Shown here: positions 18,642 to 46,080 of the stretch, in pieces
How positions within the stretch are numbered: the stretch's first letter is position 1
How the letters are laid out: each line of letters opens with the position of its first letter
Assembly: GCF_058153355.1 (NCBI RefSeq)
Contig: NZ_CM177019.1
Reading direction: 5' to 3' (one strand)
Length of the DNA: 64,000 nucleotides
Made by a program: the position numbers and the translations under genes
Notes under the pieces: generated by a model
What the model was told of the DNA's origin: nothing
The model's database searches: none
Seen by the model: the letters and a program-made list of their open reading frames with translations, nothing else

Positions 18642-19504
<863 letters not shown>

Positions 19505-19578
19505 TTAGCGGGGGAAGCAAAATACCTCCCCCGGTTGTACTCGCTAAAGAGTACGATAGCATATCATAAACGTGCGGA

Positions 19579-21516
19579 TCAGTAACGACGTCCCCATTCC
19601 GTGGCGCTCATCAACGTTGGTTTATCCCCCATGAAATAGCGGTAGTAAGCGTCATAAGCCAGCACGTTCTTCACATAACCGCGCGTCTCGGAGAACGGAA
19701 TACTCTCGACAAATGCCACTGCGTCGATACGACCAGCGCTATTGCCAAGCCAGGTGCGCACTCGTCCAGGTCCGGCGTTATAAGCTGCTGAGGCGAAAAT
19801 ACGGTTATTGCCAAACTGCTGATAAACATATTGCAGGTAACTGGTGCCGATGTTGATGTTCGTTTCCGGATCCAGCAATTGCCCAGGGCTGCTGTAGCCA
19901 GGAATAGAGAACATCTTCACCGTATGGGTCGCCGTACCAGGCATAATCTGCATCAGCCCGCTGGCCCCTACCGGTGACTTCACTTTCGGATTCCAGGCAC
20001 TCTCCTGACGGGCAATCGCCATCGCATAGCTTTGCGGGATCTCCTTACCGCTGGTGTAACGTTTGAAAAAATCGTTGTAGGCCAGCGGGAATCGTTCTTC
20101 CAGATGATCCCACAACTTCCCGGCGATCGTCGCCTGAACGCTGAGATCCCACCATTGGTTGTTGAAAGCATACCGTGCCAGCTGTGCCTGCTCTGTTTTT
20201 GACTTGCTCTTCACCAGATTGGCCCACTCGCTACGCGCGGTGTTATCGAGATTCCAGTACATCAACTCGCGCACGCGCGCCATCTCCGGCCCCTGAGTCA
20301 GGGCGCTGTCAACATTCTGCGGCGCTTTATCAATCTTCAGCTCATACTCTTCACCGATGCGTTGTGCAGCAACCATCGGGTAGAAACCACGCTGTTGCAT
20401 GAGTTGATGCAGAATCTCTTTCGCTTCAGCTTCACGTCCGCGTTCCAGCAATAAATCGGCCTGCCAGTAACGCCATTCATCTTTCTCTTTCGCTTCCATC
20501 GGCAAACGCGCCAGCCAGGTATTCAGGCCACGCCGATCGCCAGTGCCAAGCGCCATCCGTACTCGGCGTTCAATCAACGAGGTGGATTGCGAGCGCATAA
20601 TGGCGTCATCGCGCCATTTCGCCTGCTCGTCGGTGACATCGTTGCCCATCAAACGCCAGGCGACGATATCGCGCAGTTCCTGAATCTGATCTTCATTAAG
20701 CTGCTGTGCCTGAGCAAGCGATGGAATCATCAGCCGTGCATTTTCAGCATCCTGCCGCGCCACGCTGGCAAACGCCACCGCCGCCATTTGACGGGTAAAA
20801 TCGGTCGCACCGGTTGTACGCGCGAAGGTCAGTACCGTATTAGGGTTGTTCGCCAGAGAAATAATCGCCGAGGCGATAGTTTGGTAATCAGCAGGCATCT
20901 GCCCTGCCAGCACTGTCACCAGGCCTGTGTTACCCGCTTTCATCGCCAGACGGATACGCTCCAGATACGCCAGCGGATCTTGTTTGCCTGACGCACGCCA
21001 GACGCTAAATAACTTGTCACAGGCGTTAGGCTGGCTCTTGCCGGTTAGCCACAGCTCTTTCGCCCCTTGCCAGGCTTCTTCACTCTGCCCGGTGTTCCAT
21101 TTCGCATAGTAGTAATTACATTGCGCTTCGGTAGTTCCGGGCTTTTCCGGGCTAAAGGCTAACAAGCCACGCCAGTCTTCACGCCGCGCCAGTTCATTGA
21201 CGAAACGAGATTGCAGCGTGCGAGCGGGAGGAAGCGTGGGGTTAGCGCGAACAAAGTTAGTGACCGTCACCGCCGGTTGATTCATCAGGTCATCGGTGAT
21301 CTGGCGGTATTCCAGATAGGGATAAAGTGGATAATCCTTCAATCCAGGCATCATTTGTTCGACCACATCCATTTGTCGATTATCCCAGGCCTGCTTAATT
21401 TGCGCGTAACGGCTACGCTGCTCATCCAGTGAGTCGGCTCGCGCCACGCTGCTGACCGTCAGCAGACAGACACCGACAGCCAACAGCCGCCAGGTAACGT
21501 GTTTGGCTTTTTCCAC
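19579..21516 (-). CDS. slt: Soluble lytic murein transglycosylase
   Basis: 645-aa ORF with signal peptide and C-terminal lysozyme-like domain. Confidence 0.95.
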   Translation of the reverse strand: MEKAKHVTWRLLAVGVCLLTVSSVARADSLDEQRSRYAQIKQAWDNRQMDVVEQMMPGLKDYPLYPYLEYRQITDDLMNQPAVTVTNFVRANPTLPPARTLQSRFVNELARREDWRGLLAFSPEKPGTTEAQCNYYYAKWNTGQSEEAWQGAKELWLTGKSQPNACDKLFSVWRASGKQDPLAYLERIRLAMKAGNTGLVTVLAGQMPADYQTIASAIISLANNPNTVLTFARTTGATDFTRQMAAVAFASVARQDAENARLMIPSLAQAQQLNEDQIQELRDIVAWRLMGNDVTDEQAKWRDDAIMRSQSTSLIERRVRMALGTGDRRGLNTWLARLPMEAKEKDEWRYWQADLLLERGREAEAKEILHQLMQQRGFYPMVAAQRIGEEYELKIDKAPQNVDSALTQGPEMARVRELMYWNLDNTARSEWANLVKSKSKTEQAQLARYAFNNQWWDLSVQATIAGKLWDHLEERFPLAYNDFFKRYTSGKEIPQSYAMAIARQESAWNPKVKSPVGASGLMQIMPGTATHTVKMFSIPGYSSPGQLLDPETNINIGTSYLQYVYQQFGNNRIFASAAYNAGPGRVRTWLGNSAGRIDAVAFVESIPFSETRGYVKNVLAYDAYYRYFMGDKPTLMSATEWGRRY

Positions 21517-38399: not shown

Positions 38400-38484
38400 A
38401 GTAACGCAATTTATTATTCGCTAAAACCACAAAAGCCAGTCCGTTGGACTGGCTTTGGATAAAATTTTCTTAATGGTCTGAAAT

Positions 38485-38646
38485 CTAGGGTCGTTTTCGG
38501 CCCATGAACAAACTCACCAGGAACAGAATAATCCCGACGACAAAGACAATTTTAGCTGCGCCTGCAGCAGTACCGGCCAGACCACCAAACCCAAGTGCGG
38601 CGGCAATTAACGCGATAACCAGAAATATGATGCCCCAACGAAACAT
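38485..38646 (-). CDS. ytjA: Small membrane protein YtjA (DUF1328)
   Basis: ORF 38485..38676; start taken at [25 protein letters not shown] (53 aa). Confidence 0.7.
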
Positions 38647-38772
38647 AAGCGTCTCCTTTACCATAGTTAATGTCACCGCTTGATATGAGCGTGAAAATCA
38701 CTCAATGCGATATTTTTAGTGTGGTGCACATCGCGCCTCCCGACAAAGTTCGGGAGGTCGAATTACGACGAA

Positions 38773-39378
38773 TTACTTAGTTTTCAGATCATTTTTAACG
38801 CTTTTCACACCATCTACCGCTTTGGCGATACTTTCAGCACGGTCGCTCTGTGCCTGAGAATCTACGGTACCGGAGAGCTGAACCACACCATCGGTGGTTT
38901 CAACTTTCACTTTACGTGAAGGGACGATATCGTCCGCCAGCAGCTTGGCTTTGATTTCACTGGTGGTGGCGGTGTCACCCGCGTAGCCCTTCACAGAGCC
39001 TTCTTTAGCGTCGCGAACGTGCAGTTTGTCGCTGACAGAGGTCACGCCTTCAACGCCTTTCGCCACTTTCACTGCCTCTTCGGCCTGGGCCTGGCTTTCA
39101 ACGAAACCGCTCAGGGTCACGACTTTTTGATCGGTTTTGACAGAGATATCGGTGCTCTTGATGTTGTCATGATCCACCAGGGCCGCCTTCACTTTCGCGG
39201 TGATAGCGCTGTCATCCATGAAATTACCGACTTTATTCATAGAGCTATCGACTTTTTGCCCTGCACTTTCATTGGTTGTCTGCGCGTTGTTTTCTGCGTA
39301 GGCAGAGCCGGTCGCGACGGCAGAGGTCAACATTACAGCCAGCAGAGTTTTCGAAATCTTCAGTCTTGTCATAGTCAT
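38773..39378 (-). CDS. osmY: Osmotically inducible periplasmic protein OsmY
   Basis: ORF 38773..39456; start taken at [28 protein letters not shown] (201 aa), two BON domains. Confidence 0.9.
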
Positions 39379-39770
39379 CGATTTATTCCTGTATGTTTGC
39401 TCGTAATTTGAGCCTGGCAACACGAGGTTGCATTGCTGAATAGGGAGAGGCTTCACCCTCTACAGAAGTCAATGGTCGCTATCACAAAAGCGATGGCTGA
39501 TGAATAACGACCATTACAGCCTCTGAATCAGTTATTAATATCGGTAGAATGACAATCGACGGCTTTAGATACTGATATCTACGCATTGAACGGTATTTAA
39601 CGCCGTCAGAAATGTCATTACTTTGTTAAATATAGATCACAATTTTGAAACCGCTCGGGATATCCCCTAAAACATAAGCAAAAGTGAATGTTTTAAGAAC
39701 ATTCCGTAAGCGGCTAATAAGGAAGGGAAATTGACAGGGCGCAGCGGCTACCGCGCCCTGGAGGCAAGAA

Positions 39771-41357
39771 TTAATGCTCGCGAGTCTGGTGGAACTGAAC
39801 GTCCGGATAACGTTCCTGCGCCAGGCGCAGGTTGACCATGCTGGTAGCGATGTAAGCGAGGTTATCGCCGCCATCAAGCGCCAGTTGGCTTTCGTTCTTA
39901 CGCTTGAACTCTTCGAATTTCTTCGCGTCCGCACATTCTACCCAGCGTGCAGTGGCAACGTTGACTGACTCATACACTGCTTCAACGTTGTATTCGCTCT
40001 TCAGGCGCGCTACCACCACATCAAACTGCAGCACACCAACCGCACCAACGATCAGGTCGTTGTTGGAGATCGGACGGAACACCTGCACCGCGCCCTCTTC
40101 GGAAAGCTGTACCAGCCCTTTGAGCAGCTGTTTTTGCTTCAGCGGATCTTTCAGGCGGATACGACGGAACAGTTCCGGCGCAAAGTTCGGAATACCGGTG
40201 AACTTCATCATCTCCCCCTGGGTAAAGGTGTCGCCGATCTGAATAGTGCCGTGGTTGTGCAGACCAAGGATGTCGCCCGGATACGCTTCCTCAACATGCG
40301 AACGGTCGCCCGCCATAAAGGTCAGCGCGTCGGAGATCACCACATCTTTCGCGGTGCGCACCTGGCGCAGCTTCATGCCTTTTTCATATTTACCGGATAC
40401 CACGCGCATAAACGCCACGCGGTCGCGGTGTTTCGGGTCCATGTTGGCCTGAATTTTAAATACGAAGCCGGTAAATTTATCTTCGCTCGCCTCTACGGTA
40501 CGGGTATCAGTCTGACGCGGCATCGGCGCAGGTGCCCACTCTACCAGGCCATCCAGCATATGATCGACGCCGAAGTTACCCAGCGCAGTACCAAAGAACA
40601 CTGGAGTAATTTCGCCCGCAAGGAACAATTCTTTGTCGAACTCGTTAGACGCGCCTTTCACCAGTTCCAGTTCGTCACGCAGCTGCTGTGCCAGATCTTC
40701 ACCAACCGCAGCATCGAGATCCGGGTTATTCAGCCCTTTAACAATACGGACTTCCTGAATGGTGTGACCTTTACCGCTCTGATAGAGATAGGTTTCGTCT
40801 TTATAAAGGTGGTAAACGCCTTTAAACAGCTTGCCGCAGCCAATCGGCCAGGTGATCGGCGCACAGCCGATTTTCAGCTCGTTCTCAACTTCATCGAGCA
40901 GCTCCATCGGGTCGCGGATATCACGGTCAAGTTTGTTCATAAAGGTGAGGATCGGCGTGTCGCGCAGACGGGTAACTTCCATCAGCTTGCGGGTACGATC
41001 TTCAACACCTTTTGCGGCGTCGATAACCATCAGGCAGCAGTCCACCGCCGTCAGAGTACGATAGGTATCTTCCGAGAAGTCTTCGTGCCCCGGGGTGTCG
41101 AGCAGGTTAACCAGGCAGTCGTGATACGGAAACTGCATCACAGACGTAGTAATGGAGATCCCACGCTGCTTTTCCATCTCCATCCAGTCCGACTTAGCGT
41201 GCTGGTTGGAACCACGGCCTTTTACTGTACCGGCAGTCTGAATGGCCTGTCCGAACAGCAGCACCTTCTCGGTGATGGTCGTTTTACCGGCGTCCGGGTG
41301 AGAAATAATTGCAAAGGTTCTTCTTTTCGCTACCTCTGCGGCCAAAAGGCTTGTCAT
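39771..41357 (-). CDS. prfC: Peptide chain release factor 3 (N-terminal codons differ from the K-12 form as recalled)
   Basis: ORF 39771..41384; start taken at [27 protein letters not shown] (528 aa), GTPase motifs. Confidence 0.9.
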
Positions 41358-41543
41358 AATTGTTGTCTCTTTGATTATGTACAATCATATGTACAAAGAA
41401 AAATTCATGCCGCTGATTGTACATTTTGGAGGTATCAGAGCATAGCAGAACATGATCAGTAGGTGTATTTGTAGCCAAAGAACATTTGTATATGCAGCAA
41501 TCTTTGCTCTATTGACACTGTTTATTCATACAGTTAAAAATAA

Positions 41544-41563
41544 TACTGTATAAAAACGCAGTA
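41544..41563 (+). promoter_or_regulatory. Candidate LexA (SOS) box upstream of dinI-like gene
   Basis: tactgtataaaaacgcagta fits CTG-N10-CAG, 14 bp upstream of the gagagggg RBS and the ATG. Confidence 0.6.
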
Positions 41564-41577
41564 GAGAGGGGTTTTTT

Positions 41578-41826
41578 ATGCGTATTGAGATCTGCATAGC
41601 CAAAGAGAAAATGACTAAAATGCCAAACGGTGCTGTGGATGCGTTAAAGGAAGAATTAACTCGGCGCATCAGTAAGCGTTATGACGATGTAGAAGTGATC
41701 GTAAAAGCCACCAGCAATGATGGGCTTTCTGTTACACGCACCGCAGATAAGGATTCTGCAAAAACATTTGTTCAGGAGACTCTGAAAGATACCTGGGAGT
41801 CTGCTGACGAGTGGTTTGTTCACTAA
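41578..41826 (+). CDS. DinI-family protein (prophage-encoded)
   Basis: 82-aa [52 protein letters not shown]... Confidence 0.85.
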
Positions 41827-41856
41827 TTAACACGTAAAATCTGTAACGGCTGGAAA

Positions 41857-42063
41857 TCATTCAATACTCGCACTATCGAAAGTTCGCCAGCCAACCGCAG
41901 CACGTTCTTGCATACGACGTGTCTGCGGTTTTATATAATCCCAGCCGGTCCAGTTTCCAGACAACCAGCGTGTCACCTGCCGATAATGTCCTGTCAACGC
42001 ATTACGTTGTAGATCGATTTTCTGGTCATTTGTTGATACGCAAACATAGCCAATAAGCATGGT
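41857..42063 (-). pseudogene. Remnant of a Gin/Pin/Hin-family serine DNA invertase (internal deletion and frameshift)
   Basis: First 22 codons MLIGYVCVSTNDQKIDLQRNAL match invertase N-terminus; downstream DNA encodes DTLVVWKLDRLG only in another frame; too little space for an intact invertase of about 190 aa. Confidence 0.6.
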
Positions 42064-42086
42064 AGCTCCCTCTGACAAAAGCAGGA

Positions 42087-43085
42087 ATGATGCCATTTAC
42101 TCGTTATTTCTGCATTTTCATAAACATTGGTTTACAGGAAGCGGTAAATCAGGCTTCTGGCGCATTACAGAAAAACCAGAACGGTGCAGATATTCCAGGA
42201 AAAGATACCTTCACCAAAAATATTGGTGCCTGTCGCGCATATAGCGCATGGGTGGATATTGGTGGCGATAGTCAGGTCTGGACAACTGCGCAATTTATTT
42301 CGTGGCTGGAGAGTCAGGGAGCATTTAACCATCCTTACTGGATGTGCAAAGGCTCATGGGCTTATGCAAATAATAAGGTCATTACAGATACAGGTTGCGG
42401 AAATATTTGTCTTGCAGGTGCTGTGGTGGAAGTTATTGGCACCCGCGGCGCAATGACCATACGCGTTACCACGCCGGGCACGTCCAGCGGCGGCGGAATC
42501 ACTAACGCTCAATTCACTTATATTAATCATGGTGATGCTTACGCTCCTGGCTGGCGACGAGACTACAACACGAAAAACCAGCAGCCTGCATTTGCTTTAG
42601 GGCAAACAGGAAATACCGTCGGAAACGACAAAGCCGTTGGCTGGAACTGGAATAGCGGGGTCTATAACGCAAATATTGGTGGCGCAACAACATTAATCCT
42701 CCACTTCAATATGAATACGGGGAGTTGCCCTGCCGTACAGTTCCGTGTGAATTACAGGAACGGCGGTATTTTTTATCGTTCAGCGCGTGATGGTTATGGA
42801 TTTGAGGCTGGCTGGTCAGAGTTTTACACCACAACACGCAAGCCATCAGCGAGAGATGTTGGCGCATATACGCAGGCAGAATGTAACTCAAGGTTTATTA
42901 CAGGTATTCGCCTTGGTGGTCTGTCATCTGTTCAGACATGGAATGGTCCCGGCTGGTCTGACAGGTCAGGTTATGTTGTTACCGGTTCCGTTAACTCAAA
43001 CAGAGATGAACTAATTGATACAACTCAGGCAAGGCCAGTTCAGTATTGCATTAATGGGACGTGGTATAACGCGGGGAGTATTTAA
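42087..43085 (+). CDS. Alternative tail-fibre C-terminal segment (Sv'-like), expressed only after segment inversion
   Basis: 332-aa ORF opening inside a gix-like site (…IGLQEAVNQ…) and ending …YCINGTWYNAGSI, parallel to the C-terminus of the 44179..45492 tail fibre (…[12 protein letters not shown]). Confidence 0.7.
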   Translation: MMPFTRYFCIFINIGLQEAVNQASGALQKNQNGADIPGKDTFTKNIGACRAYSAWVDIGGDSQVWTTAQFISWLESQGAFNHPYWMCKGSWAYANNKVITDTGCGNICLAGAVVEVIGTRGAMTIRVTTPGTSSGGGITNAQFTYINHGDAYAPGWRRDYNTKNQQPAFALGQTGNTVGNDKAVGWNWNSGVYNANIGGATTLILHFNMNTGSCPAVQFRVNYRNGGIFYRSARDGYGFEAGWSEFYTTTRKPSARDVGAYTQAECNSRFITGIRLGGLSSVQTWNGPGWSDRSGYVVTGSVNSNRDELIDTTQARPVQYCINGTWYNAGSI

Positions 43086-43087
43086 CG

Positions 43088-43621
43088 ATGATGCACTTAA
43101 AAAACATTTCTGCTGGTAATCCTGAAACAAAAGAGCAATACCAGCTAACAAAGCAATTTAACATCAAATGGCTTTATACAGAGGATGGGAAAAACTGGTA
43201 TGAGGAACAAAAGAACTTTCAGCCTGATACGTTGAAAATGGTCTATGACCACAACGGCGTTATTATTTGTATTGAAAAGGATGTTTCAGCAATTAATCCG
43301 GAAGGCGCAAGCGTCGTTGAGGTTCCTGATATTACAGCAAATCGCCGGGCTGATATTTCAGGTAAATGGATGTTCAAAGATGGCGTAGTGATAAAGCGAA
43401 CTTATACCGGGGAAGAGCAGAGGCAACAAGCGGAAAATGAAAAGCAAAGCCTGCTACAGCTCGTCAGGGATAAAACCCAGCTGTGGGACTCACAGCTACG
43501 GCTGGGCATTATTTCCGACGAGAATAAACAAAAATTAACCGAGTGGATGCTCTATGCGCAGAAGGTCGAATCCACAGACACCTCCAGCCTGCCAGTAACG
43601 TTTCCCGAACAACCAGAATGA
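43088..43621 (+). CDS. Tail fibre assembly protein (U'-like)
   Basis: 177-aa ORF MMHLKNISAGNPETKEQYQLTK..., paralogous to 43650..44177. Confidence 0.8.
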   Translation: MMHLKNISAGNPETKEQYQLTKQFNIKWLYTEDGKNWYEEQKNFQPDTLKMVYDHNGVIICIEKDVSAINPEGASVVEVPDITANRRADISGKWMFKDGVVIKRTYTGEEQRQQAENEKQSLLQLVRDKTQLWDSQLRLGIISDENKQKLTEWMLYAQKVESTDTSSLPVTFPEQPE

Positions 43622-43649
43622 GAGAAGGCCCGATATCGGGCCTTAATTT

Positions 43650-44177
43650 TTACTCAGGTTTTTGTGGCCATTCGGGCTTTGCCGTATCCACACGGCTGAT
43701 CAGAACACTGTAGCGTTCCCATGCTTCCAGTCGTGTGCGTTCCTCGTCTGTTGCCATATTCAGCCTGACAGCGCGTTCCAGCGGCTGGATGACTGATTCA
43801 GCTTCGGAAAGTAACTCGGCCTTTTGTGATTCGGCCTGTTGCTGCTGTTCGTCTGCTGTATAAGTCCTCCTGACCACCGCTCCGTCCTTAAACATCCACT
43901 TCCCTGAATCATCGGCACGACGGTTAGCTGTTATATCGGGGATTTCAACGACGCTAAAACCTTCAGGATTAAGCGTGGAGGCATCTTTAGTGACGGCGAC
44001 AATAATATTATTTTCGTCGTAAACAATCTTTATTGTATCCGGCTGAAAGTTCTTCACTTCCTCATACCAGTTTTTTCCGTCCTCAGAGTAAAGCCAGATA
44101 ACTCCGTGTTTCTTTGTTAACTCATACTGTTCTGGTGTTTTAGCATTACCCGCTTTTATGTTCTTTAAGTGCATCAT
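43650..44177 (-). CDS. Tail fibre assembly protein (U-like)
   Basis: ORF 43650..44210; start taken at [22 protein letters not shown], one base after the tail-fibre stop. Confidence 0.8.
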
Positions 44178-44178
44178 A

Positions 44179-45492
44179 TTAAATACTCGCCACATTATAC
44201 CAGGTGCCATTTATATACTTTTGCACTGGCCTGTAATGAACGCCTGCAATATTATCGGCAGAGTTTTTTCCGGTATCCTGTACGTTAATCCCCGTCAGTA
44301 CATAGCCTGACGGGCACTGGAAATTCCATGTTTGCCAGTTATTCACACCATAATATTGCTGTGAGCCAAGCCGGACATCTTTCACATATCTGGAGTCAAA
44401 ATTGCCATAATTGCCGGGAATAACTTGCGCACCACAAAGCCAGTTACCGTTATTATCCATGTACGCCTGACCATCGGTGCCATTGGCTGTCCTTGAGTTA
44501 TTAATCATGTAGATGCCAAATTGCTTATTCCCCAGCCCACCAATTACGAATTTACGGTCGGTATGGTCCTGGCGAAGCAATGCCTGCGCACCATCGTTGG
44601 ATACCGCATTACGGCCCAGAATAACATTCTGGTCACGCATATGAATCCACATGCCGGTACTACTGTTAATTGCAAAACGGTTTGCAAATATATCCCCTGT
44701 AACATCAAGACCATGCCCCATGCTTATCCGGCCAGTTCTGAGATTAAGCGTAAAGGGGCGTAGTGGCCCTATATCACCATTTTCCCCCTCATTCTCTCGT
44801 GTAGGGATGATATGCAGGCATTCTTCAGAACGACGAAAAATGGCACCAAAAGATGAATTAAATATCCTCAGTGCATTGACTGTCGATATTTTCACTTCAC
44901 TGCTGAAAAGGGCTTTCACAAGAACATACAGAGCATCCCATTTAAGATTCATCAGGTCTTTAACCCGGCCGCCAGTGAGGTGGTGTCTCCATTTGAAATA
45001 TTCATTACCGTTATCCGCCGTTTCAAACCACATGTAGGAATCGGTGTCTGCATCCGAATCATTTTTAAATCCAATCTTCGCCCAGTCAGTATTCCGAATC
45101 CAGGCAAGGATTGAGTCGTTTTCAAAAGTAAGTCCACCGGACAAGGTATCGCCATTTTTTTGCACAGCGTTCCTGGCCCGGTTTACCGTTTCCTGTAAAC
45201 CAAGGTTTTCGAGAGCCGTTTTCACCGTGCCATCCAATTTGATATCGCCAAACGGATTCTTGCGGCTTAACAGCAGCGCGCGAAGTGCGGTAATCAACTG
45301 ATCGTGCTGCCCTTTCTCCAGGCTGGCACCGGATGCCTCCACCACGCTGCAGAGTTCTTCCTGCAACATATCAAAGTAGTCATCATCCAGATCGGTGGCA
45401 GGTGTGCCGGTCTGGGGGTTACCACGGGTAAAACCGTTCTTACCCGCGCCGAACTTATCCTTCTGCGCGGTTTTAGTGTCTATGCGATGCAT
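44179..45492 (-). CDS. Phage tail fibre protein (constant N-terminus plus currently expressed variable C-terminus)
   Basis: 437-aa ORF; codons 94-101 (LENLGLQE) are encoded by a gix-like site; C-terminus …[17 protein letters not shown]. Confidence 0.85.
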
Positions 45493-45495
45493 GGA

Positions 45496-46080
45496 TTACT
45501 CCGGATATTTAAAAATTACGTAGGTATGCGACGGGCAGAGTTTGTTAAGCACACACTCGACAACGGTGTCGCCCCATATACGCAGCGCGGAATCACAGGG
45601 ATCGCCACATGTCATCCAGGTGGTGTTGGTGGTGGCTGGCATGTTGACCTGCCAGTAATACCGCCATTCCAGCGCATTCACCGCGTCAGTACAGGCTGAT
45701 GAGCAGGTGAACGTGCTTTTGTCGTATCGCGTGATGGTGGCATCTGGTCTGCCCAGGGCAGCAAGCTGTGCAAGATAAAAATCCTCGTTGATGCCGCCCG
45801 CCAGGTTAACCTTCGCATCCAGCCGTTGCTGACGCTGGCGAAGGGTCTGCGTTCCCGCCGGAATACATTCATCCGGCAGACCGCACAGACGCTCCCAGCG
45901 GTTTATCAGTTCGGTGGTGGTGCGCGGATCCAGCTCCCGCATCAGGGCATCCGCACGCTGATGAACACGGGTTAATGACGGTGCCGCACCGGCAATCGCC
46001 GGATCGCTGGCTGACCACGCCGGACCGGGCGGCAACAGTGCCGATAACAGGCGGATGTAATCATCGTTTGTCACGTCCAT
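45496..46080 (-). CDS. Phage tail protein (Mu gp48-like)
   Basis: 194-aa ORF directly upstream of the tail fibre in a baseplate operon. Confidence 0.65.

Follow-up and report, generated by a model that had tools for sequence, protein, structure and literature searches.

The window, by which we mean the whole 64,000 nt stretch of NZ_CM177019.1 analysed here, has the character of an E. coli/Shigella-like chromosome and includes a yjjU-ytjA-osmY-prfC flank that is 97–98.7% identical to E. coli genomes. A myovirus-type prophage starts 193 bp past prfC, and a tRNA scan found none at the prfC/prophage junction. The minus-strand prophage genes include those for tail fibre, baseplate, tape measure, sheath and terminase, and PHROGs matches give the prophage a structurally complete look across the tail and head genes. 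Its outermost gene is dinI-like and is convergent with the stub of a DNA invertase gene, beyond which lies an invertible tail-fibre segment. The features are as follows.

41578–41826 (+), intact dinI-like gene, 82 aa (ORF list; PHROG 189, RecA-filament-binding DinI, E = 4e-31)
41893–41930 (+), hairpin and then UUUUAUAUAAU, probably the terminator of dinI (RNA folding)
41939–41993 (−), distal invertase fragment, pinE nt 147–201, ending ...RTLSAGDTLVVWKLDRLG (alignments with C41, 19451123 and the intact pinE of strain 104)
41994–42060 (−), proximal invertase fragment, pinE nt 1–67, MLIGYVCVSTNDQKIDLQRNAL (six-frame translation, tblastn, alignment)
42061–42114 (−), invertase leader and upstream DNA, lying between crossover site and start codon; conserved at pinE loci of the e14 type (alignments)
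42115–42140, stub-side 26 bp crossover site, exchange centre 42127/42128 (inverted repeat and pattern scan)
42128–45202, invertible segment of 3075 bp, Mu G / P1 C / P2-like type (alignment)
42128–43085 (+), silent Sv', part of the invertible segment
43088–43621 (+), silent U' chaperone (PHROG 136, tail fibre assembly)
43650–44177 (−), U chaperone in the expressed position (PHROG 136, tail fibre assembly)
44179–45202 (−), Sv in the expressed position, part of the invertible segment
44179–45492 (−), current tail-fibre gene S, 437 aa (ORF; PHROG tail fibre, E = 5e-115)
45190–45215, fibre-side 26 bp crossover site within the tail-fibre gene, exchange centre 45202/45203

The constant part of S occupies 45203–45492, and when the segment was flipped in silico the first 101 residues were common to both forms. 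The simulated inversion produced an intact 415 aa S' followed by an intact 177 aa U', so the segment offers two fibre C-termini, each with its own chaperone, and all of the genes are open in both orientations and have PHROGs matches. No decay was seen in the silent S'/U' cassette. The identity of the segment is 94% with its counterpart in a P2-like prophage; with Mu G it is 85%, and with P1 C 82%. An exact protein look-up found no match on record for the fibre protein. The U ORF as listed is 43650–44210 (186 aa), with a start that overlaps the fibre stop. Since residue 12 (MMHLKN...) is where the family match sets in, translation probably begins at 44177, which gives 175 aa and a start two bases past the stop codon of the fibre gene (44179–44181).

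Read outward from the segment, the stub-side crossover site is TTCCTGTAAACC AA TGTTTATGAAAA and the fibre-side site is TTCCTGTAAACC AA GGTTTTCGAGAG. The two share the AA core and the inner half and are in inverted orientation, as expected of the imperfectly palindromic Gin-type sites. For comparison, Mu gix is TTCCTGTAAACC GA GGTTTTGGATAA and the e14-type site is TTCTCCCAAACC AA CGTTTATGAAAA. Both sites in the window are therefore chimeric, with inner half-sites of the Mu/P2 G type, and an AA core and outer half-sites of the e14 P type. Homology changes from a P2-like/Mu segment to an e14/prfC-type flank exactly at the sites, and hence the whole 3 kb fibre cassette seems to have been swapped precisely at the recombination sites. 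No complete E. coli genome was found to pair a tail module of the e14 type at prfC with an invertible segment of the Mu G type. For 38400–45600 taken as a whole, the best full-region E. coli matches are approximately 91% identical, and identity in the housekeeping flank peaks at 98.7%. The DNA probably comes from a lineage outside the collections searched, perhaps Shigella or a divergent E. coli. The nearby YmfQ-like and J/gp47-like baseplate genes match e14-type tail modules.

An exact copy of the 82 aa DinI-like protein, named as such, is present in public collections. The hairpin downstream of the gene has a ΔG of −20 kcal/mol and a z-score of −3.4, and none of 200 shuffles was equally stable. 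It received no call in a consensus terminator scan because its 9 nt loop is above the limit of the scan. Homology to many lambdoid and Stx phages spans 41578–41932 and ends there, and 41827–41938 is the dinI 3' region with its hairpin, which makes it dinI-module DNA rather than invertase. A match to the Rfam family CssrB, a Shigella sRNA, at 41896–41956 (−) scored 22.9 bits against a gathering threshold of 76 (E = 0.032) and is probably due to chance. In eight related prfC prophages (FAM21845, Z1323HEC0423, EC05, APEC E123, PEC422, LP50-1, EcE.CRE.COL and VG35A2), dinI is annotated as frameshifted and a 1.3 kb hypothetical gene separates it from prfC. The window, C41 and JNU have an intact dinI immediately after prfC.

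On the minus strand, 41939–42060 is beyond doubt a pseudogene, and the whole remainder of a Pin/Gin-family serine invertase gene. Only 122 bp of the 555 bp gene are left, split over two frames. A preliminary description made from the letters of the sequence had already called the invertase a pseudogene, and tblastn, PHROGs matches and alignment with intact and truncated pinE agree. It gave the remnant as 41857–42063, which is the right locus, but the start codon (ATG, 42060–42058) begins at 42060 rather than 42063, the invertase DNA ends at 41939, and 41857 is the frameshift stop, reached by a stub ORF that runs through the dinI hairpin. Six-frame translation recovered the 22 in-frame codons it had described, followed after an internal deletion by a second invertase motif in another frame. 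Indeed, the distal fragment is out of frame with the stub start codon, and GDTLVVWKLDRLG is read in the second minus-strand frame at 41978–41939. A minus-strand promoter scan of 42061–42114 made no call.

When the 195 aa invertase of a P2-like prophage was used as a tblastn query, residues 1–54 matched 42060–41905 (E = 3e-7) and residues 50–67 matched 41992–41939 in the other frame (E = 4e-4), and nothing else in the 64 kb window was a credible match to an invertase. In PHROGs, stub residues 1–23 matched 'DNA invertase' families (E = 6.7e-10 and 2.3e-5), which upholds the N-terminal family match proposed earlier, and the interval contains no intact invertase ORF. The Pfam Resolvase match to the stub (i-E = 0.071) is below significance, and the family assignment rests on DNA-level homology and PHROGs. 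Membership by descent is evident from the tblastn and PHROG matches and from DNA identity to known stubs. The PHROG phrog_8275 ('DNA invertase') has a profile of 51 positions and matches the N-terminal 23 residues alone, which suggests that short invertase stubs are common enough in phages to have a family of their own.

A full invertase was taken to need a catalytic domain of approximately 100 aa, helix E and a C-terminal helix-turn-helix, in a single-frame protein of approximately 184–195 aa. In the stub, codons 1–22 alone are in frame, codons 50–67 are in another frame and codons 68–184 are absent. Arg7, the conserved catalytic-pocket arginine of serine recombinases, has been replaced by Cys at 42042–42040 (YVCVS vs YVRVS), and the substitutions N14K and T15I are also present. 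The codon for Ser9, the catalytic serine of Gin (PMC3575834), is retained at 42036–42034, but without the neighbouring Arg. Apart from this codon, the stub has lost every functional feature of serine invertases examined here, and no recombinase product is possible from 41939–42060.

Two deletions account for the missing DNA. The internal one is exactly 79 bp (pinE nt 68–146; 201 vs 122 nt), has its junction at 41993/41994 and shifts the frame. The second, of 345 bp, extends from pinE nt 202 to the end of the gene (codons 68–184). With it went what was left of the catalytic domain, together with helix E and the DNA-binding domain. The deletion joins pinE nt 201 via ATTATATAA to the dinI hairpin, and in relatives with an intact pinE the span of the record is 345 bp longer. 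The preliminary description recognized a single internal deletion; the 79 bp event is real, but the separate 3' truncation had been overlooked. It was correct that the interval has no room for an intact gene, as the dinI stop and the crossover site are 288 bp apart in the window and 713 bp apart in an intact-pinE relative. The shortfall of approximately 424 bp is the sum of 345 and 79 bp.

The intact layout is found in strain 104, where int is followed by dinI (+), a convergent 555 bp pinE (−), a 54 bp leader and the crossover site. We conclude that strain 104 still shows the ancestral layout, with dinI and pinE running towards a hairpin that serves both. The 3' truncation junction is common to 27 of 5426 complete E. 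coli genomes. These truncated relatives (C41, JNU, 19451123, FAM21845 and others) have a 201 bp stub, for which the PGAP label is 'pinE / recombinase family protein, incomplete, missing C-terminus', and the prophages of C41, JNU, 19451123 and other stub carriers are at prfC. The 41827–41993 region of the window is 99.4% identical to the stub and dinI 3' region of C41. The 79 bp deletion is in none of the 5426 genomes, and exact scans of species-representative genomes found neither its junction nor, in a further scan, the dinI-stub junction. The stub ORF product has no exact match among approximately 15 billion proteins. On these comparisons, the 345 bp deletion is evidently the older, shared event and the 79 bp deletion appears private to the window allele. 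Truncated pinE stubs beside dinI are already known and annotated in RefSeq, and are ordinary prophage decay. What is new is the extra 79 bp deletion of the window allele and its consequence for the enhancer, and nothing else.

The first 67 nt of the stub are identical (67/67) to the e14 stub allele of strain CFSAN064036, which has the same R7C, N14K and T15I substitutions in an e14 remnant where the invertase is cut elsewhere, at approximately nt 122, with a DUF262 gene beside it. Matches to this stretch at 98.6% are present in many E. coli genomes. This inactive 5' allele seems to be mobile between differently truncated contexts.

That the 79 bp deletion is found nowhere else, and its ORF product in no protein collection searched, is what an assembly or sequencing artefact would also produce, in which case the true locus would resemble those of C41 and JNU, where the stub is 201 bp and the enhancer whole. 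We regard this as most unlikely. The junction is clean, the sequence around it is in other respects almost the same as that of known alleles, pseudogenes commonly suffer deletions of this size, and there is no sign of misassembly in the window. Even an artefact would leave the gene as the 67-codon pseudogene that the truncated relatives share.

Wild-type invertases of the Gin/Pin type need two correctly spaced Fis dimers bound to an enhancer in cis. In the P1 GenBank record, the Cin enhancer is annotated at cin nt 19–90, within the 5' coding region of the invertase gene. The Hin enhancer measures 65 bp, has a Fis site at either end and lies approximately 100 bp from hixL, and recombinational enhancers are able to act over kilobases (PMC3798978). 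The homologous enhancer of the window would lie approximately 86–157 bp from the centre of the crossover site. Two G-N13-C motifs, at nt 22–36 and 71–85, are conserved in gin, pinE and the P2-like invertase gene. The proximal Fis-like motif, GTATCAACAAATGAC, is kept at 42039–42025; the distal motif has been deleted, the homologue is cut at nt 67, and no replacement G-N13-C motif is present in the window at the expected spacing. The predicted motifs consequently do not provide the two Fis sites, approximately 48 bp apart in the 5' coding region, that define such an enhancer. On a mapping by homology to the P1 cin annotation and by a simple motif, the 79 bp deletion would have removed the distal Fis-site end of a putative enhancer.

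We therefore interpret the locus as the decayed control end of a Gin/Pin-type switch at prfC, in which the invertase gene has been destroyed, half of the enhancer lost and the fibre effectively frozen, and give this reading a probability of roughly 0.78. The older 345 bp deletion removed pinE codons 68–184. The private 79 bp deletion took nt 68–146, shifting the frame and probably stripping the distal Fis-binding end from the cis enhancer. Loss of that end makes it unlikely that an invertase acting in trans could rescue the switch, and poor or no flipping would be expected. The fibre would stay in the 437 aa S form with chaperone U, and the intact S'/U' cassette would remain silent. What was observed directly is the damage to the gene, together with crossover sites and cassettes that are intact; loss of enhancer function, and hence locking, is inferred.

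The preliminary description had proposed that the switch is either locked or dependent on an invertase in trans. The locked branch is favoured here, and the trans branch, which overlooked the enhancer in the 5' coding region of the invertase gene, is unlikely. On the trans reading, a Pin/Gin/Hin-family invertase elsewhere in the genome would invert the segment and both fibres would be made. The crossover sites are intact with identical cores, both cassettes are intact, and the cross-complementation claimed for this invertase family is documented: PinQ, from prophage Qin, acts in trans to invert the P segment of e14 (PMC12529663). Some E. coli genomes also pair a stub prophage with one that carries an intact pinE. 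Conversely, the distal Fis-site end of the homology-mapped enhancer is deleted, there is no invertase within the 64 kb window, and in a K-12 pinE mutant the P segment is locked despite the presence of pinQ (PMC12529663). The standard K-12 pinE deletion would presumably remove the enhancer along with the gene.

The orientation of the segment in related prophages also bears on trans inversion. Ten stub-bearing prfC prophages were found, all of which have the whole enhancer. In 9/9 that could be measured the same cassette is in the expressed position, and the gene layout of the tenth agrees. The opposite orientation is found in strain 104, where pinE is intact. A synthetic query that joined dinI and the stub to the flipped end of the segment matched solely genomes in which the match was 345 bp longer, i.e. 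those with an intact pinE. APEC E123 (NZ_CP126955.1) carries, in addition to its stub prophage at prfC, a second prophage with dinI and an intact pinE (18684–19756), and its stub prophage nevertheless shows the common orientation. Thus, stubs that retain the enhancer are always seen in one orientation, APEC E123 included, which argues against inversion in trans. Uniform orientation is supportive rather than decisive for locking, because the relatives share descent and assemblies report the majority orientation, and it may reflect common descent rather than locking. A difference in orientation between C41 and JNU, suspected from gene names, was one of annotation wording only, as the two have the same proteins in the same orientation.

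Other considerations count against locking. Another chromosomal enhancer could in principle serve the sites, and invertases that are overexpressed or Fis-independent can act without an enhancer, as Gin M114V, which is Fis-independent, does (PMC3575834). The undecayed state of the silent cassette implies either that the lock is recent or that occasional inversion persists. Inversion might also occur rarely without an invertase, by a RecA-dependent route between the imperfect inverted repeats of approximately 54 nt around the sites. The inverted repeat does extend to 54 nt, with 74% complementarity, but its identity is low and its perfect tracts, at approximately 14 bp, are much shorter than RecA needs to work efficiently. 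The synthetic junction query picked up no stub-linked relative in the flipped state, and we consider this route extremely improbable.

If the switch is locked as we propose, the prediction for anyone annotating or inducing this prophage is a single fixed host range, conferred by the 437 aa S fibre and chaperone U, with an intact second fibre cassette that is not expressed. As the enhancer lies inside the invertase gene, one gene deletion can cost both the enzyme and a cis element, and intact crossover sites alone do not justify assuming trans-complementation. The window allele is a possible natural control for cross-talk between prophage invertases, such as that of PinQ on e14, and APEC E123 offers a natural setting for trans inversion of an orphan switch. 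Because the 201 bp stub keeps exactly the enhancer-bearing part of the gene, it is conceivable that the stubs of the 27 E. coli genomes are maintained as enhancer carriers for the invertase of another prophage and are not neutral debris. We hold this to be distinctly unlikely. If true, one recombinase would be shared genome-wide among several fibre switches, and the window allele would be a natural half-enhancer deletion with which to test the orphan-switch idea.

Among known systems, the pinE/P segment of the cryptic prophage e14 resembles the control end of the window locus: the stub is pinE-derived, the leader is e14-type, and the outer half-sites and AA core are e14-type. In the window, however, the invertase is destroyed, the cargo is a 3.07 kb Mu-G-type segment rather than the 1.8 kb P segment, and the prophage is at prfC and structurally complete-looking. 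The e14 P segment is inverted in 33% of 562 E. coli genomes (PMC12529663). The pinE pseudogenes of C41, JNU and FAM21845 have the same truncation junction to the dinI hairpin, the same prfC site and the same tail module, but they keep nt 1–201, including the whole enhancer homologue. The window stub has also lost nt 68–146 and carries R7C, N14K and T15I.

Mu Gin/G and P1 Cin/C resemble the window locus in having a constant fibre N-terminus, two C-termini, two chaperones and 26 bp inverted sites, and in Mu the invertase likewise starts approximately 65 bp outside one crossover site. Mu and P1 differ in having working invertases, complete enhancers and a GA site core in place of the AA of the window. 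Salmonella Hin/H, the source of the enhancer model with its two Fis ends, is likened here by its published layout. It differs in that hin lies inside its own invertible segment and controls a flagellin promoter, not a fibre gene.
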